A stretch of DNA of 64,000 nt, counting the filler, from an uncultured Methanosarcinales archaeon (lineage in GTDB: Archaea; Nanobdellota; Nanobdellia; Woesearchaeales; BS150m-G63): assembly GCA_964630685.1 (NCBI GenBank). It is 5 parts of 5 records of this genome, joined end to end, with 100 filler letters (N's around TTAATTAATTAA, not from the genome) between each part and the next. Parts side by side here need not be neighbours in the genome. Positions count along the whole stretch, not along the records: positions 1 to 30,235 come from CAZVVW010000001.1; 4 more parts are not named here. The stretch is one strand, 5' to 3'. The stretch's first letter is position 1, and each line of letters opens with the position of its first letter. Shown piece by piece: positions 2,786 to 62,569 of this stretch. The translations under genes and the position numbers were made by a program. The notes beneath the pieces are model-generated. The model saw only the letters and a list, made by a program, of their open reading frames with translations, was not told where the DNA came from and made no database searches.

Positions 2786-3245
2786 ATATTTAACTCAAAA
2801 AGAAGCATTTATGAAATGTAAAAAAGAAGGAAATTTTTTAGTTGTAGAAGAAGTGAATTTAGAAAAAATAAAATCTACACTTTATATTGCGGATGCAGAT
2901 GTTGAAGCTGCAAATTATATTAAAAAATCTCTTCCAAAACAAAGCAACCAATGGAATAGTGTCTATAAATTATATTATGATGCTTTACACGAATTAGTTG
3001 AATCATTTTTGAGATTTGAAAAGACTAAAATTAATAATCATCAATGCTTATTTGTGTATTTATGTGGGGAATATCAAAAATTAGATTTTGATTGGGATTT
3101 TTTTGAAAAAGTAAGAACTAAAAGAAATGGAATCAATTATTATGGCACCCCAATTGATTTTAATGACTGGAAAGAAGTTGAACTTCAGTTTATTCTTTAT
3201 ATTAAAAGATTAAGAGAAGAAATTAATAAGAAATTAAGAGATTAA
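2778..3245 (+). CDS. HEPN-domain protein (toxin partner of MNT)
   Basis: Overlaps the MNT stop. LYYDALHEL, NHQCLF and RTKRNGINYYG (R-X4-Y HEPN variant). Confidence 0.75.
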   Translation: MPKYLTQKEAFMKCKKEGNFLVVEEVNLEKIKSTLYIADADVEAANYIKKSLPKQSNQWNSVYKLYYDALHELVESFLRFEKTKINNHQCLFVYLCGEYQKLDFDWDFFEKVRTKRNGINYYGTPIDFNDWKEVELQFILYIKRLREEINKKLRD

Positions 3246-3279
3246 TACTTCTTTAATAACTTTCAACCTTATTGAAAAT
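3244..3279. repeat. 36-bp direct repeat, copy 2
   Basis: aatacttctttaataactttcaaccttattgaaaat, starting at the HEPN stop codon. Confidence 0.85.
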
Positions 3280-3319
3280 TCTCCAATAAAACCCACATAA
3301 CACTTATTAATTTTAACTT

Positions 3320-4327
3320 TTATTCACCTAGTTGCATTAATCCATAACAGGCTGGAGCGCCAAGATAAGATCCGATAAGAGTACCTGCACCAGGGTCTAT
3401 AAAAGTTCCGATAGCACTTCCAATTGCAGAAAATAAAGTTATTCTACTTGCCCTTCCAATAAAACTATCCCCAAATTCATAAGGCAAATCATCTCCAATC
3501 CCCCATGCACCCAGTAATCCTAAAGAAGTGCCAATTCCTATACTGGCCATTCCACCAATAGCACCATTTAATAAGGTTAAATTAAGCATGGTATCTATTT
3601 GATTAATTGCATTTGTAAAAGAGATATCAAAAAATCCAGTATTATTAGTCATATCTTCTGCTAAGTCAAAGATATATTTATTACCTTTATAAACACCATA
3701 AGCCAATCCTCCAGCGATACCTGCACCAAAAGTTGTTTTTAGTATTGGTTTATATGCTTTGCTAATTAAATCCTTTAAAGTGCCTCCAATCTTGCTTGTT
3801 GTATATAGTAGTTTGTCAGATGATCTACTAACTATATCGGTTAATTTATTTTTTGCTTTTCTTATTTTACTGTTTGATTTAATATTCTCTTTAGTAATCT
3901 CTTTATTTTTTTTATAAGTCTCATTTTCAGGATTTAGCTTTAAGGCGGCATCATAACATTTTAATGCAGATTTTTTGTCTCCTAATTTAGAAAAAAGATA
4001 CCCCATATTATTCCATGTAGGAGAATATTCTGGATTTATATCCAGCACCTTTCGATAACATTCATTAGCTTCTTTGTGTTTGCCCAATTTCTCCAAATCT
4101 ATCCCTTTATTATTCCAATATTTACAATTTTTTAATTCCAAATCAATAATATCATTATATCTTTTCATTAATTTATCAAACTCTCCATCTTTATATGGTT
4201 CTCTTGCTTTTTCAAATAAATCTTTTTCTTCTTTTGATTCTTTTTCTGAAACATCTATTTTTATTTGTTTGATAATCCCCTCTAGTTTTTGTTCTAAATT
4301 CTGTTGTCCAGAAGAACATTGAATCAT
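3320..4327 (-). CDS. TPR protein with C-terminal hydrophobic glycine-zipper region
   Basis: WNNKG..A..CY..VLDINP TPRs. C-terminal GAIGGMASIGIGTSLG and AIGSAIGTFIDPGAGTLIGSYLG. Confidence 0.75.
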   Translation of the reverse strand: MIQCSSGQQNLEQKLEGIIKQIKIDVSEKESKEEKDLFEKAREPYKDGEFDKLMKRYNDIIDLELKNCKYWNNKGIDLEKLGKHKEANECYRKVLDINPEYSPTWNNMGYLFSKLGDKKSALKCYDAALKLNPENETYKKNKEITKENIKSNSKIRKAKNKLTDIVSRSSDKLLYTTSKIGGTLKDLISKAYKPILKTTFGAGIAGGLAYGVYKGNKYIFDLAEDMTNNTGFFDISFTNAINQIDTMLNLTLLNGAIGGMASIGIGTSLGLLGAWGIGDDLPYEFGDSFIGRASRITLFSAIGSAIGTFIDPGAGTLIGSYLGAPACYGLMQLGE

Positions 4328-4890
4328 TTTCTAATCCCTCTATGATTCAAAGCATCATCTAAATTAATAAAATAAGATATTTCTTTAGGATTCAATTCTA
4401 TAGCTTTTAAGTAAGATTCAATTGCTTTATTGTAATCTTTTTTTGCGTGTAATGCATACCCTCTACCATTCCACATTACACTATTTATAATCTTATTTTC
4501 TTTAGGGGATAGCTCTAGTGCTTTATCATAACATTCGATTGATTCTTCTAAGATTTGAATGGACTTTTCTTTTCTAATATCTGAAGGATATTTTTTTAAA
4601 TATTCTTCTAAATTTCCTAATTTCCTTAATGAAACACCTTTACAATTCCATCCAGGATATTCGTTTGGGCTTATTGTGATAGCTTTATTAAAACACTCAA
4701 TAGATTCTTCTAATTTTCCCTGCATTGTTAATACAGTTCCTTTATTGATCCAAGCAGAATAATTTTCATTCCATAAGTCTATAGATTTATCATAACAAAT
4801 TATTGATTCACTATATCTTTTTTGTCCTGTTAATTTAAATCCTTGTTCACCCCATATTTTACTTTCTAATATATTATGTTCTTTTTCCAT
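4324..4890 (-). CDS. TPR repeat protein
   Basis: Four to five TPRs (AWINKG..ESIECFNKAI). GGGGTGA RBS before ATG 4890. Confidence 0.85.
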   Translation of the reverse strand: MEKEHNILESKIWGEQGFKLTGQKRYSESIICYDKSIDLWNENYSAWINKGTVLTMQGKLEESIECFNKAITISPNEYPGWNCKGVSLRKLGNLEEYLKKYPSDIRKEKSIQILEESIECYDKALELSPKENKIINSVMWNGRGYALHAKKDYNKAIESYLKAIELNPKEISYFINLDDALNHRGIRK

Positions 4891-26266: not shown

Positions 26267-27715
26267 ATGGCAAAGAAAGGTAAACAAGAGGCAGGTATAA
26301 CTGTCAATAAAGAGGATGATTTTTCTGAGTGGTATACTCAAGTTATCCAGAAGGCAGAATTGATAGAATATACTGGAGTTTCTGGTTGTATGGTTATTAG
26401 GCCTTTGGCTTATGAGATGTGGGAAAAAATACAGCAATTTTTTGATAAAGAGATTAAAAAATTAGGTGTGCGAAATGCATATTTTCCTTTATTGATTCCT
26501 GAAAATTTATTAAAAAAAGAACAATACCATGTTGAAGGATTTACACCTGAAGTTGCGTGGGTTACCCATACAGGAACGTCAAAATTAAAAGAAAGATTGG
26601 CGATTAGACCAACTTCTGAAACAATTATGTATGATAGTTATAAAAAATGGATAAGGAGCTATCAAGATTTGCCTCTTTTGATAAACCAGTGGTGTAATGT
26701 TGTTAGGTGGGAATTCAAACACCCTATGCCATTCATAAGGACGCGAGAATTTTTATGGCAAGAAGGCCACACTGCACATACTGATAAAAAAGGGGCAGAT
26801 AAAGAAGTGTTTAAGATTCTTGACTTGTACGCTAAAGTTTTTGAAGAATTATTAGCTGTTCCTGTTTTGATGGGAACTAAGTCAGATAAAGAGAAGTTTG
26901 CTGGTGCAGATTATACTGTTAGTGTTGAGATGATGTTTCCAGATGGAAAAGCGATTCAAGGAGCAACTTCCCATAGTCTTGGACAGAATTTTGCTAAGGT
27001 TTTTGGTATAAGTTTTGTTGATAAAGATATGAAAAAGAAATATGTTTGGCAGAATTCTTGGGGGATAACTACTAGGAGTTTGGGAATAATGTATGCAATT
27101 CATGGAGATGATAAGGGGTTGGTGATACCCCCAAAAATGGCACCTAATAAAGTTGTTATTGTGCCTATATTGTTCAAAGATACTAAAGCTAAGGTTTTGA
27201 AAAAAGCAAAAGAGCTTAAGAAAAAAATTGGAAAATACGATGTGCTTTTGGACGAAAGAGAAGATTATAGTCCAGGATGGAAATTTAATGAATGGGAGCT
27301 AAAAGGAGTTCCTGTTAGGTTGGAAATAGGTCCAAGAGATTTAGAAAAAGGAAGTGTTATGCTTGCTCGAAGAGATACTGGAGAAAAAGAAATTGTTAAA
27401 TTTGGCGGGCTTGATAAAAAAATTAAAATTGTTTTAGATGATATGCAGAAAAACATGTATGAAAAAGCCAAGAAGTTTTTGCAAAATAATATTGTTGAAG
27501 CTAAGAGTTTTGCTGAATTAAAAAAAGCGATTAAAGATAAAAAGTTTGTCAAAGCCAGCTGGTGCGGAAAACTTGGATGTGAAGAGAATATTAAGTTTGA
27601 AACGGGCGGAGCTAAAACTTTGAATATCCCTTTTTCTCAACCCAAGAAAATTGATAAATGTGTTTACTGTGGAAAAGAAGGGAAACATTTGCTTTATTTT
27701 GCTAAGAGTTATTAG
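26267..27715 (+). CDS. proS: Proline--tRNA ligase (archaeal/eukaryote type)
   Basis: RPTSET, VRWEFK, RTREFLWQEGHT, QNSWG, and C-terminal FAKSY. Confidence 0.97.
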   Translation: MAKKGKQEAGITVNKEDDFSEWYTQVIQKAELIEYTGVSGCMVIRPLAYEMWEKIQQFFDKEIKKLGVRNAYFPLLIPENLLKKEQYHVEGFTPEVAWVTHTGTSKLKERLAIRPTSETIMYDSYKKWIRSYQDLPLLINQWCNVVRWEFKHPMPFIRTREFLWQEGHTAHTDKKGADKEVFKILDLYAKVFEELLAVPVLMGTKSDKEKFAGADYTVSVEMMFPDGKAIQGATSHSLGQNFAKVFGISFVDKDMKKKYVWQNSWGITTRSLGIMYAIHGDDKGLVIPPKMAPNKVVIVPILFKDTKAKVLKKAKELKKKIGKYDVLLDEREDYSPGWKFNEWELKGVPVRLEIGPRDLEKGSVMLARRDTGEKEIVKFGGLDKKIKIVLDDMQKNMYEKAKKFLQNNIVEAKSFAELKKAIKDKKFVKASWCGKLGCEENIKFETGGAKTLNIPFSQPKKIDKCVYCGKEGKHLLYFAKSY

Positions 27716-27718
27716 TTT

Positions 27719-27736
27719 CAAAAGTTTTATATATTT
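27719..27736 (+). promoter_or_regulatory. Archaeal BRE/TATA promoter of the riboswitch transcript
   Basis: caaaagTTTTATATAT about 25 nt upstream of the riboswitch P1 5' strand. Confidence 0.6.
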
Positions 27737-27754
27737 ATTCTGTTTTTTATTTTG

Positions 27755-27862
27755 TTATCCTCTAAAGGAAACTAAGGTGAAAATCCTTGACTGTGCCGCA
27801 ACCGTAAATCCCATTTAGGGAAAGTCGGAAAACTTATTGGATATATTACCTCGAGCAAGGAA
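27755..27862 (+). ncRNA. Cobalamin (B12) riboswitch
   Basis: AAAGGAAAC, then TAAGG-TGAAAAT-CCTTG (P4/T-loop), ACTG-TGCCG-CAAC (P5), CCGTAA..TCCC-ATTTA-GGGA..AAGTCGG-AAAAC (B12-box-like). P1 is TATCC/GGATA and P13 is CCT-CGAGCA-AGG. Lies upstream of B12-uptake genes. Confidence 0.88.
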
Positions 27863-27900
27863 AGTCAATTCTTTCTCAAGGCAATTAATTAGGTGAGTTA

Positions 27901-28371
27901 GTGAAACAAAAAGAGATTGCTAAACAAAAAAAAAGTAAAGAAAAAAATTCTTTAACTGAAGTGCTTAGTGCTATTGAGTTAATGCAAAAAGTGGAATCTA
28001 TTGATGCTAAATTCGACTCTAAAGATTTTGTTCAATTAGATGATGGTAAAGTTAAATTTGATTATTCTACTAATTTGATAGATAAACAAATGGATTATTC
28101 TGAATTGTTTTCTTATCTAAATTCTAAAGCAAAAGAAAATCCTTATACTTCTTATGAATCTGTTGATGAAGAAAAAAAACAAGAAGATAATTTGGATGTT
28201 AAAGAATCAATATCTTATGAAGAAGTTGAAGAAGTCATAAAAACTAAAAAATTTAATGATATGTTATCTAGATCTACTCTTTTTCAGATGCCTCCATCAG
28301 TTAAAGAGCGATTTGATTGGTTTAAAATTTTTAATAAAGCTTATTTGGATTTAATGTATGATATGATTTAA
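27901..28371 (+). CDS. Hypothetical protein, first gene behind the cobalamin riboswitch
   Basis: AGGTGA SD at 27891-27896, GTG start, 156 aa, no family recognised. Confidence 0.7.
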   Translation: MKQKEIAKQKKSKEKNSLTEVLSAIELMQKVESIDAKFDSKDFVQLDDGKVKFDYSTNLIDKQMDYSELFSYLNSKAKENPYTSYESVDEEKKQEDNLDVKESISYEEVEEVIKTKKFNDMLSRSTLFQMPPSVKERFDWFKIFNKAYLDLMYDMI

Positions 28372-28385
28372 ATGAATCTTAAAAA

Positions 28386-29087
28386 ATGGAACAAAAAATA
28401 ATCCAAAAAAAGAAAGAAAAAAGTAAAACAAAAAAGAAGATTAAAGGGAAAGAGAAATTAGCTCTACATCTTTTATTGAAACAACTAGATCTTCTTAAGA
28501 TGAAAGAATATCTTGTTTTGATTGGGTTGATGTTTGGTGGTGCTTTGTTGAGAATTCCTATGCAAGCAGTACCGAGTGCTGAGCCTATTACTTTTTTTGC
28601 GATTTTGGCTGGCTGGCTTTTTGGAAAGAAAAAAGGATTCTTGACAGGAGCCTCTGCTTTGTATGTTTCTAATTTTTTAGTTTTTGGAGGGCAAGGTGTT
28701 TGGACCATTTTTCAGGCATTAGGATTTGGAATGGCTGGTTTTTTTGGAGGTTATTTGAGAAAGAAGGCTAAATGGTTTGAGGTGATGATTGTTGCAGGAA
28801 TAGCAACACTTGCTTATGAGATAATTGTTAATTTTGGCACTTTGATGTTTATGCCTTTTAGTATATTCGCGATATTTTTTACAGCTCTTCCTTTTACATT
28901 AGTGCATTTGGTTTCAAATGTTGCGTTTTCTTTAGGGTTAGGGAAAGCTAAATCTTTTGTGGAAGAAAAAGGAGGGTTTAACGAAAAAAAGATGTGTAAA
29001 GATATGATTAAAGTTTTGAAAAGTAAGTTTAAATATAAAAAGAGCAATGAAAATGAAATTAAAGAAGGTAAGGGGGTAAGTATATGA
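28386..29087 (+). CDS. cbrT: ECF transporter S-component, CbrT-like (cobalamin)
   Basis: PSAEPITFF..G..KGFLTGA..VSNFLVFGGQGVWTIFQ matches the CbrT-type SNF..GQGPWT.Q motif. About six TM helices. Confidence 0.8.
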   Translation: MEQKIIQKKKEKSKTKKKIKGKEKLALHLLLKQLDLLKMKEYLVLIGLMFGGALLRIPMQAVPSAEPITFFAILAGWLFGKKKGFLTGASALYVSNFLVFGGQGVWTIFQALGFGMAGFFGGYLRKKAKWFEVMIVAGIATLAYEIIVNFGTLMFMPFSIFAIFFTALPFTLVHLVSNVAFSLGLGKAKSFVEEKGGFNEKKMCKDMIKVLKSKFKYKKSNENEIKEGKGVSI

Positions 29088-30235
29088 AACAAATAATTTG
29101 GGTTATGATGGTTTTGATTTTGGTGGGAGCTGGTGTTGCAGTAGATGTTTGTGTTGTTGTGGAATTTCCAGATAAAATTGAGAGCGAATGTTTAGATGTT
29201 GATCAAGGAATTAGAGGGTATGAATTATTGGAAGAAAGTAGTTTTAGCGCTTTTTGGAACGAATATCATGGTTTTGGATACATGTTGTGTAAAATAAATG
29301 GTGTTGGAACTAATGCTGCTGTAGGTGGAGGATGTGAATATGCTGGAGAATATTGGGCGTTTTATACTGTAGATGATGGAGAATTAGCATATTCAATGGT
29401 TGGATTGAGTAGTTATGAAGTAAATGATGGAGATTTATTATTGCTAAGCTATGGAGACGGAACTTCTGTGCCTTTGCTGTTACAGATTGATAATTTAAAA
29501 GCATATGTTAATGGAGACAAAGATAAAAATGTAGATGAAACTGGTGGAGTAATTAAGGATGTTAGTCCAGGTTCTGTTGTGAAACTGAAGTTTGATATCA
29601 AGAATCTGTTTGATAAGGATACTGATGTTGGGATGGAAGATGTTGAATTGAGAGTGATTCTTAAGGATATTGATGATGGCGATGATTTGGAATTGGAATT
29701 TGAAGAGGTTTCTATTGACGCAGATAAAGAAGAAGAAATTGAAGTGGAATTTGAGATTCCTTTACAATTGAAAGAGAAAAATTATGAGCTTGTATTGGAA
29801 TTGAATGGAGAGGATGATTTTGGAGTGAATTATGAACAAAATCTTGAGTTTGCAGTTGAATTAGATAAAACCACTCATGCGCTTTGTCTTTTTGGTGATA
29901 TTGATAATGTGATTGAATGTGGCGATACAGCTAAGTTAGATATTGAATTAGTGAACATAGGAAAAAGAGATGAAGATGTTGCACTTTCAATATATAGTGA
30001 TGGATTGGGATTTAGTGTTTCTGAAAATATTGAGTTGGATAGTAACTATAAAGACGATGACAATAAGTTTGAGAAGAGCTATTATGTTGATGCATTGACT
30101 AGGGGATTTTTTCCAATAACAATTAAAGCAGATTATGGCACTGATGCTGAACAAGTGGTTGTTTACCTAAATGTAAGCTGTGAAAGTGGTCTAGTTAGTG
30201 ATGTTGATTCACTTGTTCAACAACATTTAGATATG
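29084..30235 (+). CDS. Secreted DUF4430 (transcobalamin beta-domain-like) protein with S-layer/Ig-type domains, truncated at contig end
   Basis: Signal peptide, then FGYMLCKINGVG..YWAFY..SMVGLSSYEVNDGDLLLLSY, followed by acidic beta-rich domains. Confidence 0.78.
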
Positions 30236-30335
30236 NNNNNNNNNNNNNNNNNNNNNNNNNNNNNNNNNNNNNNNNNNNNTTAATTAATTAANNNNNNNNN
30301 NNNNNNNNNNNNNNNNNNNNNNNNNNNNNNNNNNN
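30236..30335. other. Artificial contig junction (N44-TTAATTAATTAA-N44)
   Basis: N run with a six-frame-stop linker. Confidence 0.95.
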
Positions 30336-32209
30336 GTTCCTGGACAGGTAAGGTTTTCGTTGAGTGTTAATGAAGTGTTTAAGTTCATGTCACAACCTAC
30401 TTGAGATGTTATTATTCCATTACATATACAATAATTTGAGTTTTCACAAACAGTATCATCACCTGCCCAACAATCTTTTCCTGAACATCCATCTTCACAA
30501 GTTGTGCTTGCATTAGTTTGAGAACAATAACCATCATCACAACCTATATTTAGACAATAACTAGAACACCCTATAGAATCATAAGCATACTTAATCTGTC
30601 CACCGAAATTGAATTTAAGAGCTATCTGTTTTTCTGTTGGAGCTAGTTTTTTACTTATTTCTGAAGATGTTTCTGTACATAGGAAAGGATTTGCAATCAC
30701 GCTTTTTGTTGATTCATCCCAAGTAAATGGGAAGTTTTCATTTCCACATTTTAATTTTAAGAATTGTAAATCATATCCGGGATAATTTGCGTTAGATTGG
30801 TTGGTCCAATTAGTGTTCCAATTACTTTCATTTCTTGGATATGGAAGTTCACTACTATCATTAACTGCTGTAATTATTAATGGGGCTTTTCCTATTGTGT
30901 TAAATGAAACAGTCCAATTATCGTTTTGGTGAACATAAGTGTCAATGTTTATGATGTTAATTTCTACTCCAAATTCTTTTGTGCTAAGATTTGTTTTCCA
31001 TTCTATTACATCTGTAATATTATCAGAATCTAAATCTTCTGCTGTAAATGGAATTTCTTCTTTTTCTTTTGTTAAATCATATACGTTAATAGCTTTTTCA
31101 ATTTGTGCTAAAGGAATTATCTGGAGTATGGCTAAAGGTACTGTTACATTTTCATAATGTTCATCTGACCAAACAGTGACTATTGTTTTAAATGGGTTTA
31201 TTTCTTCTATAGCCATATTAGGCCCAGGAAGTTTATGATGTATTTCTATACATCCCAATTCTTTTCTGATAGTTATTTGGTCTTTTTTGATTATTGAATC
31301 TTCGAGTGGGATATTATTACAACCTCTTGCTTTGATATTATATGCTTGTGGATGTAATTCTTCTTTGAATTTTAATTTTCCTTTAACTTTACGGTTTAAA
31401 TTCAGCGTTTTAACAAATTCTATTGGTTTTCCTGCTGTTATTTCTCCATAAGTTGTGCTTTCTGTAACTTCTAATTCAGGCATAGGCATACAGCAGTACA
31501 TCTCTCCTTTGTAGGCTTCTCCAACTAAGTTTCCTTGTTGTGTTGGTGGAGCGAATAGATTTGAAAGCCAATTCCAGAATTTAGTTAAGAAATTATCTTG
31601 CAGGTTTGGATCTATGTTGTAGGCTTTTCCTGCTAAGTTTTTTTCATCTGCTTTTGGAGATTGTTTTTTCTTTTCTTCTTGAGGTTTTTCTTCTTTTATA
31701 TCCACTTTTTGTGGTTTTAATTTATTTACATCTATAGAAGAAGTTGATTTAGAAGTTTTCTCAGACTTTTTCTTTATTTTTACCTTACAACTAAGTGTTA
31801 ATTTTTCTTCAACATATTCATCTTTTTTACATTTTGACCTACATCTTCCACCTTTTTGTTCACAGTCAGTTTCTTTTAATGATTTAATTTCTTTTATTGG
31901 TTTAAGGGATACTGATTTTTTTGTATCTTTATTTTCTGCTTTTTCATTTGCTTCTTTTAATTTTTTTTCTTTTTGTGCGTTTTTGATAACCTCCGAATTT
32001 GCTGGATTAGCAGTAAGTTTCCCTGTAATATCTTCTTCTGAAAATGTTTCTTGGATATTTTCCCAGATATTTTCAAAGAAGCCGACACCTTCTTCTTGGG
32101 AGTTAGAATTAGTGGATTCAGCTACAACAGAAGTTAAGAAGAGGAGTGATAAGAATAAAGCTATGACTATCTTAAACCCTGCAGTTTCCATATAATTTAA
32201 TCTAGTCAT
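30336..32209 (-). CDS. Large secreted Cys-rich surface protein, truncated at contig end
   Basis: Signal peptide, Cys-rich modules and many N-X-S/T sequons. Runs into the N gap. Confidence 0.75.
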
Positions 32210-32460: not shown

Positions 32461-32719
32461 TACATACACTGTATGTATTTTTAGCTAGCTAGTTACTAAT
32501 TTTACATACATTGTATGTATTACNNNNNNNNNNNNNNNNNNNNNNNNNNNNNNNNNNNNNNNNNNNNNNNNNNNNNNNNNNNNNNNNNNNNNNNNNNNNN
32601 NNNNNNNNNNNNNNNNNNNNNNNTTAATAAATGTTTCTATTTTTTACATACATTGTATGTATTACTTAATAAATGTTTCTATTTTTTACATACATTGTAT
32701 GTATTACTTAATAAATGTT
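32461..32719. repeat. Array of the palindrome TACATACA-N-TGTATGTA (at least 4 copies), two inside a 42-bp tandem unit; spans scaffold gap 32524-32623
   Basis: Copies near 32461, 32503, 32645 and 32687. Unit ttaataaatgtttctattttttacatacattgtatgtattac occurs twice after the gap. Confidence 0.8.
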
Positions 32720-36370: not shown

Positions 36371-36636
36371 CTTCACACCATTTGATTACAGAAGGATTTA
36401 CAAGAACTGTTTGTCCTTATTGTTGGAGAACTATAGATGAAAGAGAATGGGGTTCAGAATTTGAAGGTGAAGTTCATTATAAAAGTGCTGTTTGTGAATG
36501 TGGAAAACAAATAAGATTGACTGTAGATTTTCAAGGTTCAGGGCATGATGAGTGGCAAGAAAGAACAACATCTTTTTTGGCTAAAAAAGAAATTGAGAAT
36601 CAATCAAATACTTCAATTGAGGATAAATTAAAATGA
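36367..36636 (+). CDS. Small Zn-ribbon protein inside the por operon
   Basis: CPYC..CECG. ATGA overlaps with both porA and porB. Confidence 0.7.
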
Positions 36637-38630
36637 TTTTAGGATTAAACGAAGAAGAATTATTGGAATTTGGACATAATGCTTGTGCTGGTTGTGGTGA
36701 AGCGTTGGCTGCGAGATATGTTATGAAGGCAGCTGGAAAAAATACAATAGTTGTAAATGCTACTGGTTGTTTAGAAGTGTTTTCTACACCTTATCCTCAA
36801 ACTGCATGGAAAGTTCCTTGGATTCATGGAGCTTTTGAAAATGCATCTGCTATTGCTTCTGGAGTCGAAACCGCACTAAAAAAATTAGGAAAGAAAAAAG
36901 ATGTAAATGTGCTGGCTTTTGGTGGGGATGGCGGAACCTTTGATATTGGGTTTCAATCATTAAGTGGAATGGCTGAGAGGGGACATAATGTGTGTTATGT
37001 GTGTTATGATAATGAAGCTTATATGAATTGTTTAAGTGTAGATTCTTTAGTTATGACAGAAAAAGGTTTGAAGAAAATAACTGAAGTTAAAAAAGGAGAA
37101 ATGGTTTACGCGTTCAATCAAAAAAATTATCAATTAGTACTAAAAAAATGTATGGGTGTTTTTGACAATGGAAGAAAAAGAGTTTTTGAGTTAGAAACGC
37201 TGCATCATAATATAAAAGCAACGGGGAATCATCCTTTTTTAGTGTTAAAACATAATAGAAGAGGGAAAGAAAACACTTTTGTATGGAAAAATTTGGATAA
37301 GATTAAAAAAGGAGATGAAATAGTTACACTAAAAAAAATAAGTGAAGGTATTTCATATATTTTTAAGAAAATAAAATTAACTAAAAAAGGAGATTATAAA
37401 GTAAATAAATTAAATAAGGTTAAATTACCCCTTAAATCCAGTGTTGAGTTAATGAGATATTTTGGAATTTATCTTGGTGATGGGTGGATAAGAAAAGAGC
37501 GAGGAGAATTGGGATTTGATGTTCCCAAAAAGAATCGTGCCAGAAAAAAATTATTAGAGTTACAGAAAAAAATATTTAAGTTAAGTGCTAAAACAGATGA
37601 TAATTATGTTTATGTTAATTCAGTAAACATAACAAAATTTATTGATTCTTTAGGGTTTGGAAAAGGTGCAAAAAATAAAATAATTCCATCATGGATTTTT
37701 ACACTTCCAGAAAAAGAAAAAATTGCATTTGTTGATGGATTAATGCTTTCTGATGGTTATAAACATGGGAAAAGTTGGAGATATGTTTCAGCGAGTAAAG
37801 AGTTATTATCTAGATTGAGATTGCTTCTTCAAACCATGAATTTTAGGGTTGGCAAAATACATTGCCAAGTAAAGAAAAAAGGAACTCATTGTGTTTATAG
37901 AAATCTTTTGAAGGATTCTTCTTATGGGTATATATGTTTTAGCAAAAAAAGCAAACCAAAAATATCTAAATATATAAGTCAATATAAATATACTAATTTT
38001 TTAATAGATAATCTTAATTTTGATATAGAAAAAGTTAAGAACGTAGTTAAAAAAGGAGTGGAATCAACTTTTGATTTGAGGGTGGATGGAGAGCATAATT
38101 TTGTTGCCGATGGAATTGTTGTACATAATACTGGCGTTCAAAGGTCTGGGGCCACACCTAAATATGCATCTACTACAACTTCTCCTGCTGGAAAAAAAAT
38201 TCCAGGCAAAACAGAGTATGCTAAACCTATGCCATTTATCATGGCTGCACATGGAATTTATGTTGCTACTGCCAGTATTGCTTATCCACAAGATTTAATT
38301 AGGAAAGTTAAAAAAGCATTGAGCATGGATGGACCTTCTTATATTCAAATTTTTAATTCTTGCCCTCTTGGTTGGAAACATAAATTTAATTTAGGAATTA
38401 GGATAGCAGAATTAGCATATAAAACAAATGTGTTCCCCTTATATGAAATTGAAAAAGGAATTGTAACAATTAGTAAAAAACCTGTACAGAAAACACCTGT
38501 TGTAGAATATTTAAAACTACAAGGCAGATTTAAACACTTGGGTGAAGAAGAAGTAAAAGAAATACAAGGAAATGTTGATGCTAAGTGGGAAAAATTGTTA
38601 AAGCTTGAAGAAACAAAAATTGGTTTTTGA
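36633..38630 (+). CDS. porB: Pyruvate:ferredoxin oxidoreductase beta subunit (intein-containing)
   Basis: [28 protein letters not shown]|intein|TGVQRS, CPLGW. Confidence 0.95.
37029..38129 (+). mobile_element. Intein (367 aa) with LAGLIDADG homing endonuclease
   Basis: Starts CLSVDS, block [16 protein letters not shown] and DGLMLSDG endonuclease blocks, ends [12 protein letters not shown] with Thr at +1. Confidence 0.95.
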
Positions 38631-55893: not shown

Positions 55894-55993
55894 NNNNNNN
55901 NNNNNNNNNNNNNNNNNNNNNNNNNNNNNNNNNNNNNTTAATTAATTAANNNNNNNNNNNNNNNNNNNNNNNNNNNNNNNNNNNNNNNNNNNN
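55894..55993. other. Artificial contig junction
   Basis: N run with TTAATTAATTAA linker. Confidence 0.95.
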
Positions 55994-57205: not shown

Positions 57206-57305
57206 NNNNNNNNNNNNNNNNNNNNNNNNNNNNNNNNNNNNNNNNNNNNTTAATTAATTAANNNNNNNNNNNNNNNNNNNNNNNNNNNNNNNNNNNNNNN
57301 NNNNN
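57206..57305. other. Artificial contig junction
   Basis: N run with TTAATTAATTAA linker. Confidence 0.95.
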
Positions 57306-62469: not shown

Positions 62470-62569
62470 NNNNNNNNNNNNNNNNNNNNNNNNNNNNNNN
62501 NNNNNNNNNNNNNTTAATTAATTAANNNNNNNNNNNNNNNNNNNNNNNNNNNNNNNNNNNNNNNNNNNN
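62470..62569. other. Artificial contig junction
   Basis: N run with TTAATTAATTAA linker. Confidence 0.95.

Follow-up and report, generated by a model that had tools for sequence, protein, structure and literature searches.

The leader of a three-gene operon in a Woesearchaeota-like DPANN archaeon carries, as judged from sequence and comparative evidence, a genuine class-II (AdoCbl-II/RF01689-type) cobalamin riboswitch aptamer, which is predicted to bind cobalamin. It belongs to a conserved, covarying family of cobalamin riboswitches with archaeal promoters, in a domain where such switches are barely known. We consider it highly probable that the leader holds a true riboswitch of the cobalamin class, that the genome is archaeal and that the switch controls a corrinoid-uptake operon, a judgement that covers no single read-out. 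The first-pass annotation of the window (the whole stretch of 64,000 nucleotides analysed here) had proposed this central reading, with an archaeal promoter and a DPANN host, and it survives every test run.

Riboswitches are rare in archaea (PMC5473149; PMC8241225), where only the fluoride class has been validated (PMC8241225). The archaeal classes listed in PMC5473149 are TPP, fluoride, FMN, Mg2+-I and guanidine-II, with cobalamin absent, and cobalamin is also absent from the archaeal list of Gupta and Swati, as quoted in PMC8281238. In the literature searched, cobalamin riboswitches were not reported from archaea.

A class-II cobalamin aptamer in the leader

The leader was matched by cmscan to RF01689 (AdoCbl-II) at positions 27756-27843 (+), with a score of 35.7 bits and an E-value of 4.6e-7 in a 301-nt search, or about 1e-4 once scaled to the whole window. 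The alignment spans model positions 1-81 of 81, and overlapping weaker matches from clan CL00101 were suppressed. The elements are the following:

27756..27843 (+), class-II cobalamin aptamer (full-model RF01689 match, covariation)
27756-27760 / 27839-27843 (+), P1, TATCC / GGATA (direct read, cmscan)
27765-27767 / 27833-27835 (+), P3, AAG / CTT (direct read, cmscan)
27767-27772 (+), J3/4 junction GGAAAC (direct read, cmscan)
27773-27777 / 27785-27789 (+), P4, TAAGG / CCTTG, with loop TGAAAAT 27778-84
27792-94 / 27798-800 (+), P5, TGT / GCA, with loop GCC
27794..27798 (+), L5 kissing bases UGCCG
27802-27804 / 27826-27828 (+), P6, CCG / CGG
27806..27824 (+), enlarged L6, with mini-hairpin TCCC 27809-12 / GGGA 27818-21 in the predicted fold
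27829-32 (+), J6/3
27844..27848 (+), J1/13 linker TATTA, 5 nt
27849..27860 (+), P13, CCT 27849-51 / AGG 27858-60, presenting L13
27852-27857 (+), L13 CGAGCA, complementary to L5 TGCCG with A27854 bulged

The cmscan alignment contains the four-way junction P3-P6 closed by P1, with J3/4 GGAA, a GUGAAA-type L4 loop and J6/3 GUCGGAA. The complete aptamer first described from the sequence, with P1, the GGAA junction and P4 with its loop, was thus recovered both by direct reading and in the alignment. One detail of that description was wrong: P6 CCG/CGG, taken for a compensatory change, is the normal state for the class, being the Rfam consensus and invariant in all 16 copies described below.

The covariance-model match is significant, but it falls 0.8 bit short of the RF01689 gathering score of 36.5 bits, which is an operational cut-off and not a structural feature, and a whole-window Rfam scan gave no family at its own gathering score. 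The shortfall is probably due to a 14-nt hairpin inserted in L6, which cmscan scores as an insert. The lineage model R2 gives the window copy 64.8 bits (E = 2.7e-16). Of the columns that do not vary among the 15 related copies, all 25 are kept, as are 35 of 36 near-invariant positions, the sole difference being G27795, which is compensated in L13. Single-sequence folding did not recover the aptamer, and the folding energy was unremarkable (z = -1.16).

Syntenic, covarying copies in related genomes

Of 54 related DPANN (Woesearchaeota/Nanoarchaeota) loci, 14 repeat the arrangement, with the aptamer ahead of the homologous transporter gene and in the same orientation. Counting against the riboswitch reading, only 14 of the 48 loci in which at least 200 nt of upstream sequence is present have the aptamer. 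There are 16 copies including that of the window, every one on the strand of its gene, and 10 of them were not used in building the first model. Eleven reach or exceed the RF01689 gathering score, at 36.9-46.0 bits (L001, L016, L006, L025 twice, L031, L039, L024, L036, L048 and L046); the five not reported at threshold are the window copy, L053, L035, L023 and L049.

In the alignment of copies, which was fitted to the covariance model, 87.7% of cells are paired. Changes on both sides occur in all five P4 pairs and in one P5 pair, while P6 and P3 are conserved. The covariation score is 0.230, compared with 0.055 for shuffles, of which none in 500 reaches 0.230, and every slid register scores worse than the aptamer pairing. 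The junctions GGAA and GUCGGAA, which are core ligand contacts, are invariant in 16/16 copies.

The sub-threshold score and the unremarkable folding energy are what could be expected if an AT-rich leader resembled the model by chance and scored near threshold. This explanation retains almost no probability in the face of 16 syntenic, covarying copies, 11 of them above threshold, adjoining homologues of cobalamin binders, and we regard it as effectively refuted by the synteny, the scores and the covariation.

Relative to its closest relative, L001, the window copy has 14 extra bases in L6, an insertion found in the alignments in 1 of the 16 copies. Since L6 contacts L4 in class-II switches (PMC6158498), the insertion could impair the window copy. 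We think it quite improbable that this copy is a decaying relic, disabled by the insertion, of a family that is real in the relatives: the insertion is unique to the window and the copy is among the five under the gathering score, but the invariant and near-invariant positions are kept with the single difference compensated in L13, the insertion itself is a neat hairpin extending P6, much like the class-I P6 extension, and the promoter, P13 and downstream ORFs are intact.

An archaeal promoter and an archaeal contig

The archaeal BRE/TATA promoter that had been noted ahead of the aptamer was confirmed, and lies on a contig whose end cuts off the last ORF of the operon:

27720..27733 (+), archaeal-type promoter, with BRE-like purine-rich AAAAG 27720-27724 and TATA-like box TTTATATA 27726-27733
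30236..30335 (no strand), contig join, two 44-N runs flanking TTAATTAATTAA; last base of the riboswitch contig at 30235

In 15 of 16 copies the GGAAA junction is preceded, at a distance of 33-42 nt, by a TTTAWATA box with no more than one mismatch, compared with a background of 7.6% (binomial P = 2e-16). These boxes are position-specific, about 25 nt before P1, and in the window 22 nt separate the end of the box from P1. With the spacing between TATA box and start site that is usual in archaea, transcription would begin at about 27756, near the first base of P1.

The neighbouring genes also point to an archaeal origin, as originally proposed. Fibrillarin, Nop5, ABCE1 and an archaeal-type ProRS are encoded in the window, the last directly upstream on the riboswitch contig, and in related loci the genes for proteasome beta, FttA/aCPSF1 and TrmB are on the same contigs as the aptamer. 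Two related loci (L005 and L022) have tRNA genes with long introns, and 53 of the 54 loci are labelled archaeal, the remaining one, L052, being labelled Peribacteria and having no aptamer. That label could be taken to suggest that the riboswitch contig is bacterial and mis-binned, carrying an ordinary bacterial riboswitch, as could the concatenation of contigs in the window and the fact that the class is known from marine bacteria and metagenomes (PMC2864571). With the archaeal genes on the aptamer contigs, the ProRS gene beside the window copy, the TATA boxes in 15 of 16 copies, the intron-bearing tRNA genes and the labels all against it, a bacterial origin is scarcely credible.

The operon probably serves corrinoid uptake

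The three downstream ORFs reported at the outset are present, the last running to the contig end:

27891..27903 (+), Shine-Dalgarno-like AGGTGA 27891-96 and GTG start 27901-03 of ORF1
27901..28371 (+), ORF1, 156 aa, small uncharacterised family
28386..29087 (+), ECF-type S-component-like membrane protein, DUF6580, with a lysine-rich N-terminal extension
29084..30235 (+), secreted protein with signal peptide, N-terminal transcobalamin-beta/DUF4430-like domain and S-layer-like repeats, cut by the contig end

ORF1 gave no Pfam or NCBIfam family and no atlas match. Its product is 71% identical to that of the L001 ORF and 22% identical to that of L025 3202-3726, a homologue that has its own riboswitch copy, and a search of 1.84 billion proteins gave 49 representatives at E<=1e-3.

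The second protein matches Pfam DUF6580 (2.3e-8, 34.9 bits, cut-off 27) and, below the cut-off of 30.7, ECF_trnsprt (3.2e-5, 24.5 bits). Its AlphaFold model (pLDDT 88.5) gave Foldseek top matches that are all ECF S-components (probability 0.84-1.00, TM(target) 0.42-0.67, E 0.07-1), the best folds being FolT, RibU and PanT (TM 0.55-0.67). A profile of 38 homologues searched against PDB sequences gave E = 3.2 for CbrT (6fnp_A), the best match being 4hzu_S at E = 0.068. The proposed CbrT-like ECF S-component therefore holds for the ECF S-component fold and not for the CbrT-specific part. Among the 64 ORFs called in the window, Pfam identified no B12-dependent enzyme, class II ribonucleotide reductase or EcfA/A'/T, a result that carries little weight for the genome as a whole.

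For the secreted protein, a Foldseek search of the PDB placed transcobalamin, haptocorrin, intrinsic factor or 3U7Z at ranks 1-19 (E 1.8e-4 to 9e-3), with the next match only at E = 0.2. The domain has a TM(target) of 0.75 to the isolated beta domains 5NO0, 5NP4 and 3U7Z, in a model with a pLDDT of 72 overall and 81-91 over most of the domain core. Its assignment as a DUF4430 protein stands at the level of the fold but fails the Pfam cut-off: residues 62-123 match DUF4430 (PF14478) at E = 0.043, with 14.7 bits against 23.8. The L024 orthologue scores 19.7 bits (E = 0.0012), and hhalign against bona fide DUF4430 lipoproteins gives a probability of 28.9%. The protein also matches the NCBIfam PACE-CTERM S-layer-like family (9.7e-8), and its full-length orthologues have 443-510 aa. 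Small DUF4430 lipoproteins (E~1e-11) are encoded in related and sister operons, and their profile matches transcobalamin-1 (E = 0.004). Operon 27901-30235 is thus a probable B12/corrinoid uptake system.

The kissing loop and a non-bacterial read-out

The L5-L13 complementarity with one bulged A, also noticed in the first reading, is borne out by 27794-27798 and 27852-27857, with A27854 unpaired. It amounts to five pairs in the window, and four G·C pairs with one bulge are present in 16/16 copies. At kissing pair 4 the window and L001 have G-C where the other 14 copies have C-G; G27795 is a C to G change of the window lineage that is compensated in L13, so that the kissing-loop covariation is a single event, common to two close relatives. 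The strands of P13 read CCU/AGG in these two relatives and, in the other lineage, GGAU/GUCC, with variants UGAU/GUCA, GGAU/AUCC and GGAU/GUCU; the stem has 3-4 bp in 14 of 16 copies and is weak in the two copies of L025.

The start codon lies 24-50 nt past L13 in 15 copies, and 105 nt past it in L048. A ribosome-binding site inside L13, which is the env8 mechanism, was not found in the 16 copies: GGAG follows L13 in most of them, without a start codon at conserved Shine-Dalgarno spacing, and of the 11 copies with a GUG in L13, only 3 have it in the reading frame of the gene, roughly as expected by chance. The read-out differs from the bacterial one, since the start codon is neither in L13 nor adjoining it.

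Minimum-free-energy folds of the expression platform contain instead an alternative hairpin:

27849..27881 (+), alternative three-tier hairpin, with stems CCU/AGG 27879-81, GAG 27853-55/CUC 27875-77 and AAGGAA 27857-62/UUCUUU 27869-74

Within this hairpin the guanines of L13 are buried, as is the pyrimidine tract TTCTTTCTC (27869-27877), and the minimum-free-energy folds of most copies have an equivalent. Keeping L13 unpaired costs 0.4-7.5 kcal/mol. The tract UUCUC is conserved in 15 of 16 copies, and the predicted accessibility of the start site is equal in the two states of the platform.

We propose that the BRE/TATA promoter would most likely give a transcript beginning near the first base of P1, and that the leader would fold into the P1/P3-P6 aptamer, as the model match and covariation indicate. 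With corrinoid bound, L5 (UGCCG) would dock on L13 (CGAGCA), held out by the short P13, a step predicted from the one compensatory swap, the P13 covariation and the known mechanism of the class (PMC5028336; PMC6158498). Because docking and the three-tier hairpin use the same guanines, ligand binding should dissolve the hairpin and, as folding and conservation suggest, would expose the pyrimidine tract UUCUC. Plentiful corrinoid would then most likely lower expression of the operon, an OFF direction suggested by analogy with bacterial B12-uptake regulons.

There are several candidates for how the docked leader would act. To interference with translation initiation we assign slightly less than an even chance. 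That the transcript is terminated early or cleaved at the exposed U/C-rich tract, perhaps by way of FttA/aCPSF1, is possible but doubtful; archaeal terminators are oligo-U, for which a U/C tract is a poor match. The remaining probability falls to something else, including an ON switch.

It is unlikely, to our judgement, that the switch is real but of the ON type, or senses another corrinoid or precursor (such as cobinamide, or a cobamide whose lower ligand differs), so that the uptake genes are induced or tuned to a particular scavenged form. Bacterial B12-uptake genes under cobalamin riboswitches are repressed by the ligand, and the GGAA and GUCGGAA ligand-contact junctions are invariant in 16/16 copies, although the platform shows no sequestration of the start site on ligand binding. 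J1/3, short in the window copy and short and variable across the copies, also favours another ligand or direction, as it is the ligand-selectivity determinant of class-II switches, whose members have a wide selectivity range (both from PMC6158498).

Relatives without the aptamer have instead a winged-helix/DUF4443 regulator and a palindromic operator. These observations can be joined in a tentative wider picture, whose parts, taken all together, are rather unlikely to hold: a DPANN branch may have domesticated a bacterial-type cobalamin riboswitch under archaeal promoters; docking may expose a pyrimidine tract that acts on the archaeal machinery, through FttA/aCPSF1-dependent termination or Shine-Dalgarno-independent initiation, and not through occlusion of a ribosome-binding site; and in sister lineages a winged-helix/DUF4443 protein, together with a palindromic operator, may repeatedly have taken the place of the RNA sensor. 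If the swap reading is true, this protein is a candidate corrinoid-responsive archaeal transcription factor. The regulator and palindrome are mutually exclusive with the aptamer, which suggests that the RNA sensor has a protein counterpart.

The family offers a concrete system for how archaeal transcription and translation machinery decodes a ligand-sensing leader, a question to which the bacterial mechanism, with its ribosome-binding site in L13, gives no answer. It also marks out a dedicated corrinoid-scavenging operon in organisms with minimal biosynthesis, cofactor pathways being rarely complete in Woesearchaeota (PMC8421398). Two families of unknown function thereby gain a probable role, in an operon that combines a small unknown protein with a DUF6580 S-component and DUF4430/transcobalamin-like binders.

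Comparison with known systems

The closest known system is env8HyCbl/Cbl-IIa (RF01689, AdoCbl-variant/AdoCbl-II), with which the archaeal copies share the aptamer architecture and junctions, in a full-model match, and the lack of the large P6 peripheral domain. Both also have a short J1/13 leading to the P13 stem-loop, whose L13 pairs with L5 in a kissing helix interrupted by an unpaired nucleotide (PMC5028336); the 5-nt J1/13 of the window is similar in length to the 7-nt linker of env8, whereas the single unpaired nucleotide of the archaeal copies compares with two that are reported as strictly conserved in 144 family members (PMC5028336). In contrast to env8, the host is archaeal, with a TATA/BRE-type promoter, the start codon lies well past L13 and not at a ribosome-binding site within it, and the copies have a competing three-tier hairpin overlapping L13 and a short J1/3, with the L6 insertion in the window copy.

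Class-I cobalamin riboswitches (RF00174; E. coli btuB, T. tengcongensis), which prefer AdoCbl, belong to the same clan, CL00101, and typically target B12 uptake, as here. They have an extended P6 accessory region, whereas the archaeal copies match the class-II model best, and the regulatory L5-L13 kissing loop is common to both (PMC9600662). The Thermococcus kodakarensis fluoride riboswitch and the predicted archaeal TPP riboswitches are likewise bacterial-type classes in archaea, although the ligand class differs.

The small six-helix S-component-like protein behind the riboswitch resembles ECF-CbrT (L. delbrueckii, 6FNP) and the solitary S-components of the BtuM type, BtuM working alone, without an ECF module. 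Unlike ECF-CbrT, it is a DUF6580 protein, with no significant sequence similarity (E = 3.2) and no EcfA/A'/T seen in the window. Finally, the N-terminal domain of the secreted protein has the fold of the transcobalamin/intrinsic factor beta domain and of bacterial DUF4430 (3U7Z); here, in contrast, it stands at the start of a protein of about 450 aa that also carries S-layer-like repeats, and is a candidate corrinoid binder.

An AdoCbl-II aptamer heads the operon

Every element of the cobalamin riboswitch named in the first-pass annotation was found in the sequence, at essentially the same coordinates. The elements listed here were read from the sequence, with P1 assigned by cmscan as well; a scripted search for the P1 duplex was noisy.

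27726-27733 (+): TATA-like box TTTATATA, with a purine-rich AAAAG just before it
27756-27760 and 27839-27843 (+): P1, TATCC with GGATA
27767-27772 (+): junction GGAAAC
(+): P3, AAG with CTT
(+): P4, TAAGG with CCTTG, loop TGAAAAT
(+): P5, loop GCC
(+): P6, CCG with CGG
27852-27857 (+): L13, CGAGCA, complementary to L5 (UGCCG) given a bulged A27854

At gathering thresholds, the Rfam scan of the whole 64-kb window matched 0 families. In a local scan with an E-value threshold, RF01689 (AdoCbl-II, formerly AdoCbl-variant) matched 27756-27843 (+) over its complete model (1-81 of 81) with E = 4.6e-7, at a score below the gathering cut-off (35.7 versus 36.5 bits). Five further local matches to the region were noise (E of 2.7 or more), and a single-sequence fold of 27740-27905 was uninformative, with z = -1.16 and the aptamer missing from the minimum-free-energy structure.

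The window copy retains 25 of the 25 columns that are invariant across the other 15 copies described below and 35 of the 36 near-invariant ones, the sole change being an L5 base. Its L6 alone is enlarged (27806-27824), with 14 bases more than in the related locus L001 and a 4-bp hairpin inside, and cmscan handles this 14-nt stretch as an insertion. In class-II cobalamin aptamers L6 makes contact with L4 (PMC6158498); the inserted stretch could be an extension specific to the lineage, or it could make the aptamer weaker.

Related loci carry the same arrangement

For the membrane protein encoded at 28386-29087, 226 relatives were found (E ≤ 1e-3), and the named ones are almost all Woesearchaeota or Nanoarchaeota. 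From an alignment of 38 relatives we obtained at least 54 loci in a species-representative genome collection; the set comes from one scan seeded by two peptide patterns and is therefore no census. The labels of the 54 loci listed are archaeal in 53 cases and Peribacteria in one.

A strict regular expression for the aptamer core recovered just 5 of 55 sources, so covariance models were used instead. RF01689 reached its own gathering threshold on the gene's strand, just upstream of it, in L001, L016 and L006, and also upstream in L025 (two copies), L031, L039, L024, L036, L048 and L046, which amounts to 11 of 16 copies; the score was missed by the window, L053, L035, L023 and L049. A first lineage model, trained on six copies, gave 16 strong matches (E ≤ 2.7e-6), all on the plus strand, in the window and 14 of the 54 loci listed, and 10 of these matches come from outside the training set. 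Two weak matches (E of 0.06 and 0.9) were discarded as chance. A second model built from all 16 copies detected no extra or more divergent aptamer in the 40 aptamer-less loci, 34 of which extend 200 nt or more upstream; its next best match had E = 0.027 and lay on the wrong strand. The arrangement to be looked for in other Woesearchaeota genomes, an aptamer upstream of the transporter gene, is seen in 14 of the 54 loci listed. L025 holds two copies, each with its own TATA box: one (3112-3170) precedes the ORF1 homologue (3202-3729) and the other (3892-3950) the S-component gene (3986-4666).

In the alignment of the 16 copies, 87.7% of cells are standard pairs, with two-sided changes at all five P4 pairs and at one P5 pair. 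The covariation score is 0.230 versus 0.055 for shuffled alignments, a value reached by 0 of 500 shuffles, and all slid registers are far worse. P6 does not vary, nor does most of P3, and this is neutral as evidence for structure. These rows were fitted to the model, which biases them towards structure; the P4 covariation is still plain in the raw rows.

An archaeal-type promoter and an archaeal host

In 15 of the 16 copies a TTTAWATA box (at most one mismatch) precedes the GGAAA junction by 33-42 nt, against a background of 7.6% at random positions of the same sequences (binomial P = 2e-16). The archaeal promoter proposed before the aptamer is supported by a position-specific TATA-like box. 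In the window this box ends 22 nt before P1 and, by the usual archaeal TATA-to-start spacing, transcription is expected to begin at or near the aptamer's first base.

An archaeal-type ProRS is encoded on the aptamer contig of the window, ending at 27715, while fibrillarin, Nop5, ABCE1/RLI and SecDF are encoded on its other contigs. On the aptamer-bearing contigs, genes for TrmB, proteasome beta and FttA/aCPSF1 lie just downstream of the operon. Two related loci hold intron-containing tRNA genes:

L005, 283-399 (-): tRNA gene of 117 nt, with a 47-nt insertion shown; the length implies a long intron
L022, 1145-1283 (-): tRNA gene of 139 nt; the length implies a long intron

These long introns are consistent with an archaeal origin of the two loci. 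A bacterial origin of the aptamer contig, which the first-pass annotation had considered, is very unlikely in view of the ProRS on the contig and the archaeal neighbours in related loci.

Proteins of the operon

ORF1 (27901-28371) is preceded by AGGTGA and starts with GTG. It matches no Pfam or NCBIfam family and has no atlas match; its small unannotated family comprises 49 representatives (E ≤ 1e-3) among 1.84 billion proteins, and it shares 71% identity with its L001 neighbour and 22% with the L025 homologue. The ORF1 homologue and the S-component gene of L025 are each headed by their own riboswitch, and this separate copy ties ORF1 to corrinoid biology.

The second protein belongs to Pfam DUF6580, with weaker ECF S-component matches, and its model (pLDDT 88.5) resembles FolT, RibU, PanT, BioY and ThiT. 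Its description as a CbrT-like ECF S-component thus holds for the family and fold but not for the likeness to CbrT, to which there is no sequence similarity (6FNP, E = 3.2). A fusion joins the S-component of L048 (3929-5983) to a large extracellular part at its C-terminus (684 aa, with a weak CARDB match).

The third gene shares 4 nt with the end of the second and is cut off where the contig ends (30235), so it is incomplete; its full-length orthologues have 443-510 aa. For the modelled N-terminal domain (pLDDT 72), fold-search ranks 1-19 are the beta domain of transcobalamin, haptocorrin and intrinsic factor and 3U7Z, a bacterial DUF4430 structure, with E from 1.8e-4 to 9e-3 and the next match at E = 0.2. 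This resolves the DUF4430 relationship, for which hhalign against DUF4430 lipoproteins gave a probability of 28.9%, and the predicted fold agrees with the earlier call of a secreted DUF4430-type protein. Sister operons encode small DUF4430 lipoproteins (E about 1e-11) whose profile matches transcobalamin-1. In L035 (191-3148) and L023 (406-3336) the first gene after the riboswitch encodes a protein of some 980 aa that matches no Pfam family; only the C-terminal 250 aa or so are common to both (58% identity), ending in a motif that resembles DUF4430 by eye, and the N-terminal 700 aa or so are not alignable.

Within the 64-kb window we saw no ECF A/T module and no B12-dependent enzyme, and ARAGORN found no tRNA genes. 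Its contigs are joined by N44-TTAATTAATTAA-N44 linkers (30236-30335, 55894-55993, 57206-57305 and 62470-62569), so that synteny across the joins is meaningless; an additional run of 100 N occupies 32524-32623. Two further genes of the window are recorded here:

36633-38627 (+): pyruvate:ferredoxin oxidoreductase beta subunit (TPP_enzyme_C) with an apparent intein (Intein_splicing, E = 2.5e-17, residues 140-499)
30337-32209 (-), on the contig that follows: large protein, secreted and rich in cysteine, with 624 aa preceding the N run and just a weak "big defensin" match (E = 0.0028)

A candidate protein regulator in aptamer-less relatives

Of the 40 aptamer-less loci, 21 have a gene for a winged-helix (PH0730-like/CggR_N) protein with a DUF4443 domain, against 0 of the 14 aptamer loci (Fisher P = 3e-4); this gene was not found in the window. 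Eleven of the 40 aptamer-less loci, and none of the 14 with an aptamer, carry the palindrome TTGGATAT-N(1-3)-ATATCCAA immediately before the S-component gene. The palindrome is close to the regulator start, on the upstream side, in all 21 loci with the regulator, beginning 39-73 nt from that start in 11 of them. The regulator is usually transcribed divergently, and the palindrome beside it heads the same transporter operon. Examples are:

L014, 3294-3860 (-): winged-helix/DUF4443 regulator gene
L011, 3369-3956 (-): winged-helix/DUF4443 regulator gene
L038, 2958-3530 (+): winged-helix/DUF4443 regulator gene
L014 3896, L030 3906, L038 3887, L005 2565, L010 2659: palindromes

The DUF4443 protein is possibly the counterpart of the riboswitch. 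On a quick tree of the S-component, from which the partial L049 and L051 were left out, the aptamer label is clustered (as good in 5 of 500 shuffles) and requires 5 changes, at least 2 of them forced by well-supported branches; aptamer and palindrome loci can be sisters (L039 and L038, SH-aLRT 99%). These label changes and sister pairs suggest that RNA sensor and protein regulator may have been repeatedly exchanged on one operon.

Kissing loop and expression platform

L5 is NCCCG, or UGCCG in the window lineage, and in all 16 copies it can form four G·C pairs with L13 while one base bulges out, in line with the proposed kissing loop with its single bulged A. The window and L001 have G-C as the fourth pair where the other 14 copies have C-G, a compensatory swap that counts as one evolutionary event; a fifth pair (U-A) occurs in the window, L001 and L025b, one of the two L025 copies. 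A script, rather than pair-counting on an alignment, was used to tabulate the pairs of the kissing loop and P13, because the MAFFT alignment of aptamer plus platform set the two platform subtypes in different registers.

A conserved element follows the aptamer after a short linker in all copies. It reads, with some variation, GGAUCG(U/A)GGAG, two variable bases, GUCC(G), a variable loop, (C)GGAU and UUCUCU in 14 copies, and CCUCGAGCAAGG, a loop and UUCUUUCUCAAGG in the window and L001. The platform possibly has two mutually exclusive predicted folds. Fold A would contain a small P13 with CG(N)G(G/C) in its loop, the stem being GGAU/GUCC in most copies, CCU/AGG in the window and L001, UGAU/GUCA in L039, GGAU/AUCC in L048 and GGAU/GUCU in L046; both L025 copies have a poor P13 with no clear stem. 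Fold B would be a three-tier hairpin in which the L13 guanines are buried in a GAG/CUC helix, along with the pyrimidine tract. Keeping L13 unpaired is calculated to cost 0.4-7.5 kcal/mol of platform stability.

The start codon lies 24-50 nt beyond L13 in 15 copies and 105 nt in L048, whose leader is the longest in the set, and many copies are without any Shine-Dalgarno-like sequence. Several ideas for the read-out found no general support. Occlusion of the start site is not supported, since the predicted unpaired probability at -15 to +12 is essentially equal with L13 free or held in the 16 copies. A hidden AUG near L13 has Shine-Dalgarno spacing after GGAG in just 3 copies (L016, L006 and L036), and the L13 GUG as a start opens a stop-free frame that continues into the gene in just 3 of the 11 copies that have it (L016, L053 and L035), so that a hidden start was rejected as being at about chance level. 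Base-pairing between the pyrimidine tract, once freed, and a Shine-Dalgarno-like sequence is plausible in L023 only and was rejected as a general rule. With start-region accessibility unchanged and these ideas not generalising, the mechanism is well supported only in its sensing half.

Comparison with known riboswitches

The aptamer finding is real, and its first-pass interpretation is essentially right. The aptamer belongs to a known class, first reported from marine sequences (PMC2864571, Table 1); it stands out by its host domain, by its archaeal promoter and by a platform in which the ribosome-binding site is not placed in L13. Archaeal riboswitches in a distribution survey are TPP and fluoride, with FMN, Mg2+-I and guanidine-II as occasional finds (PMC5473149), and fluoride is described as the sole experimentally determined class in archaea (PMC8241225). 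PMC9600662 makes only a generic mention of the class in "bacteria and archaea". Full-text searches of openly available papers returned no report of a riboswitch in Woesearchaeota; matches for DPANN or Nanoarchaeota, judged by title or abstract, included no relevant report, and there was no archaeal cobalamin riboswitch among the literature matches listed. DUF6580 and DUF4443 had no literature mention in full text. These searches concern the literature and not database annotations, in which any pipeline built on Rfam would flag 11 of the copies.

With this operon, the decoding of riboswitches in archaea can be studied in a natural system that has a possible protein-regulator counterpart in sister lineages, which should interest specialists in riboswitches and in archaeal gene expression. 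In the mechanism of the class, as set out in PMC5028336 and PMC6158498, L13 must be presented in a stem-loop, the J1/13 linker is short, and docking is made ligand-dependent by unpaired nucleotides of the kissing helix. The archaeal copies resemble this description in their L13 stem-loop, short linker and unpaired base in the kissing helix. They differ in having one unpaired nucleotide there, compared with two reported to be strictly conserved in 144 family members (PMC5028336), and, whereas the published class has its ribosome-binding site in L13, the archaeal copies do not.
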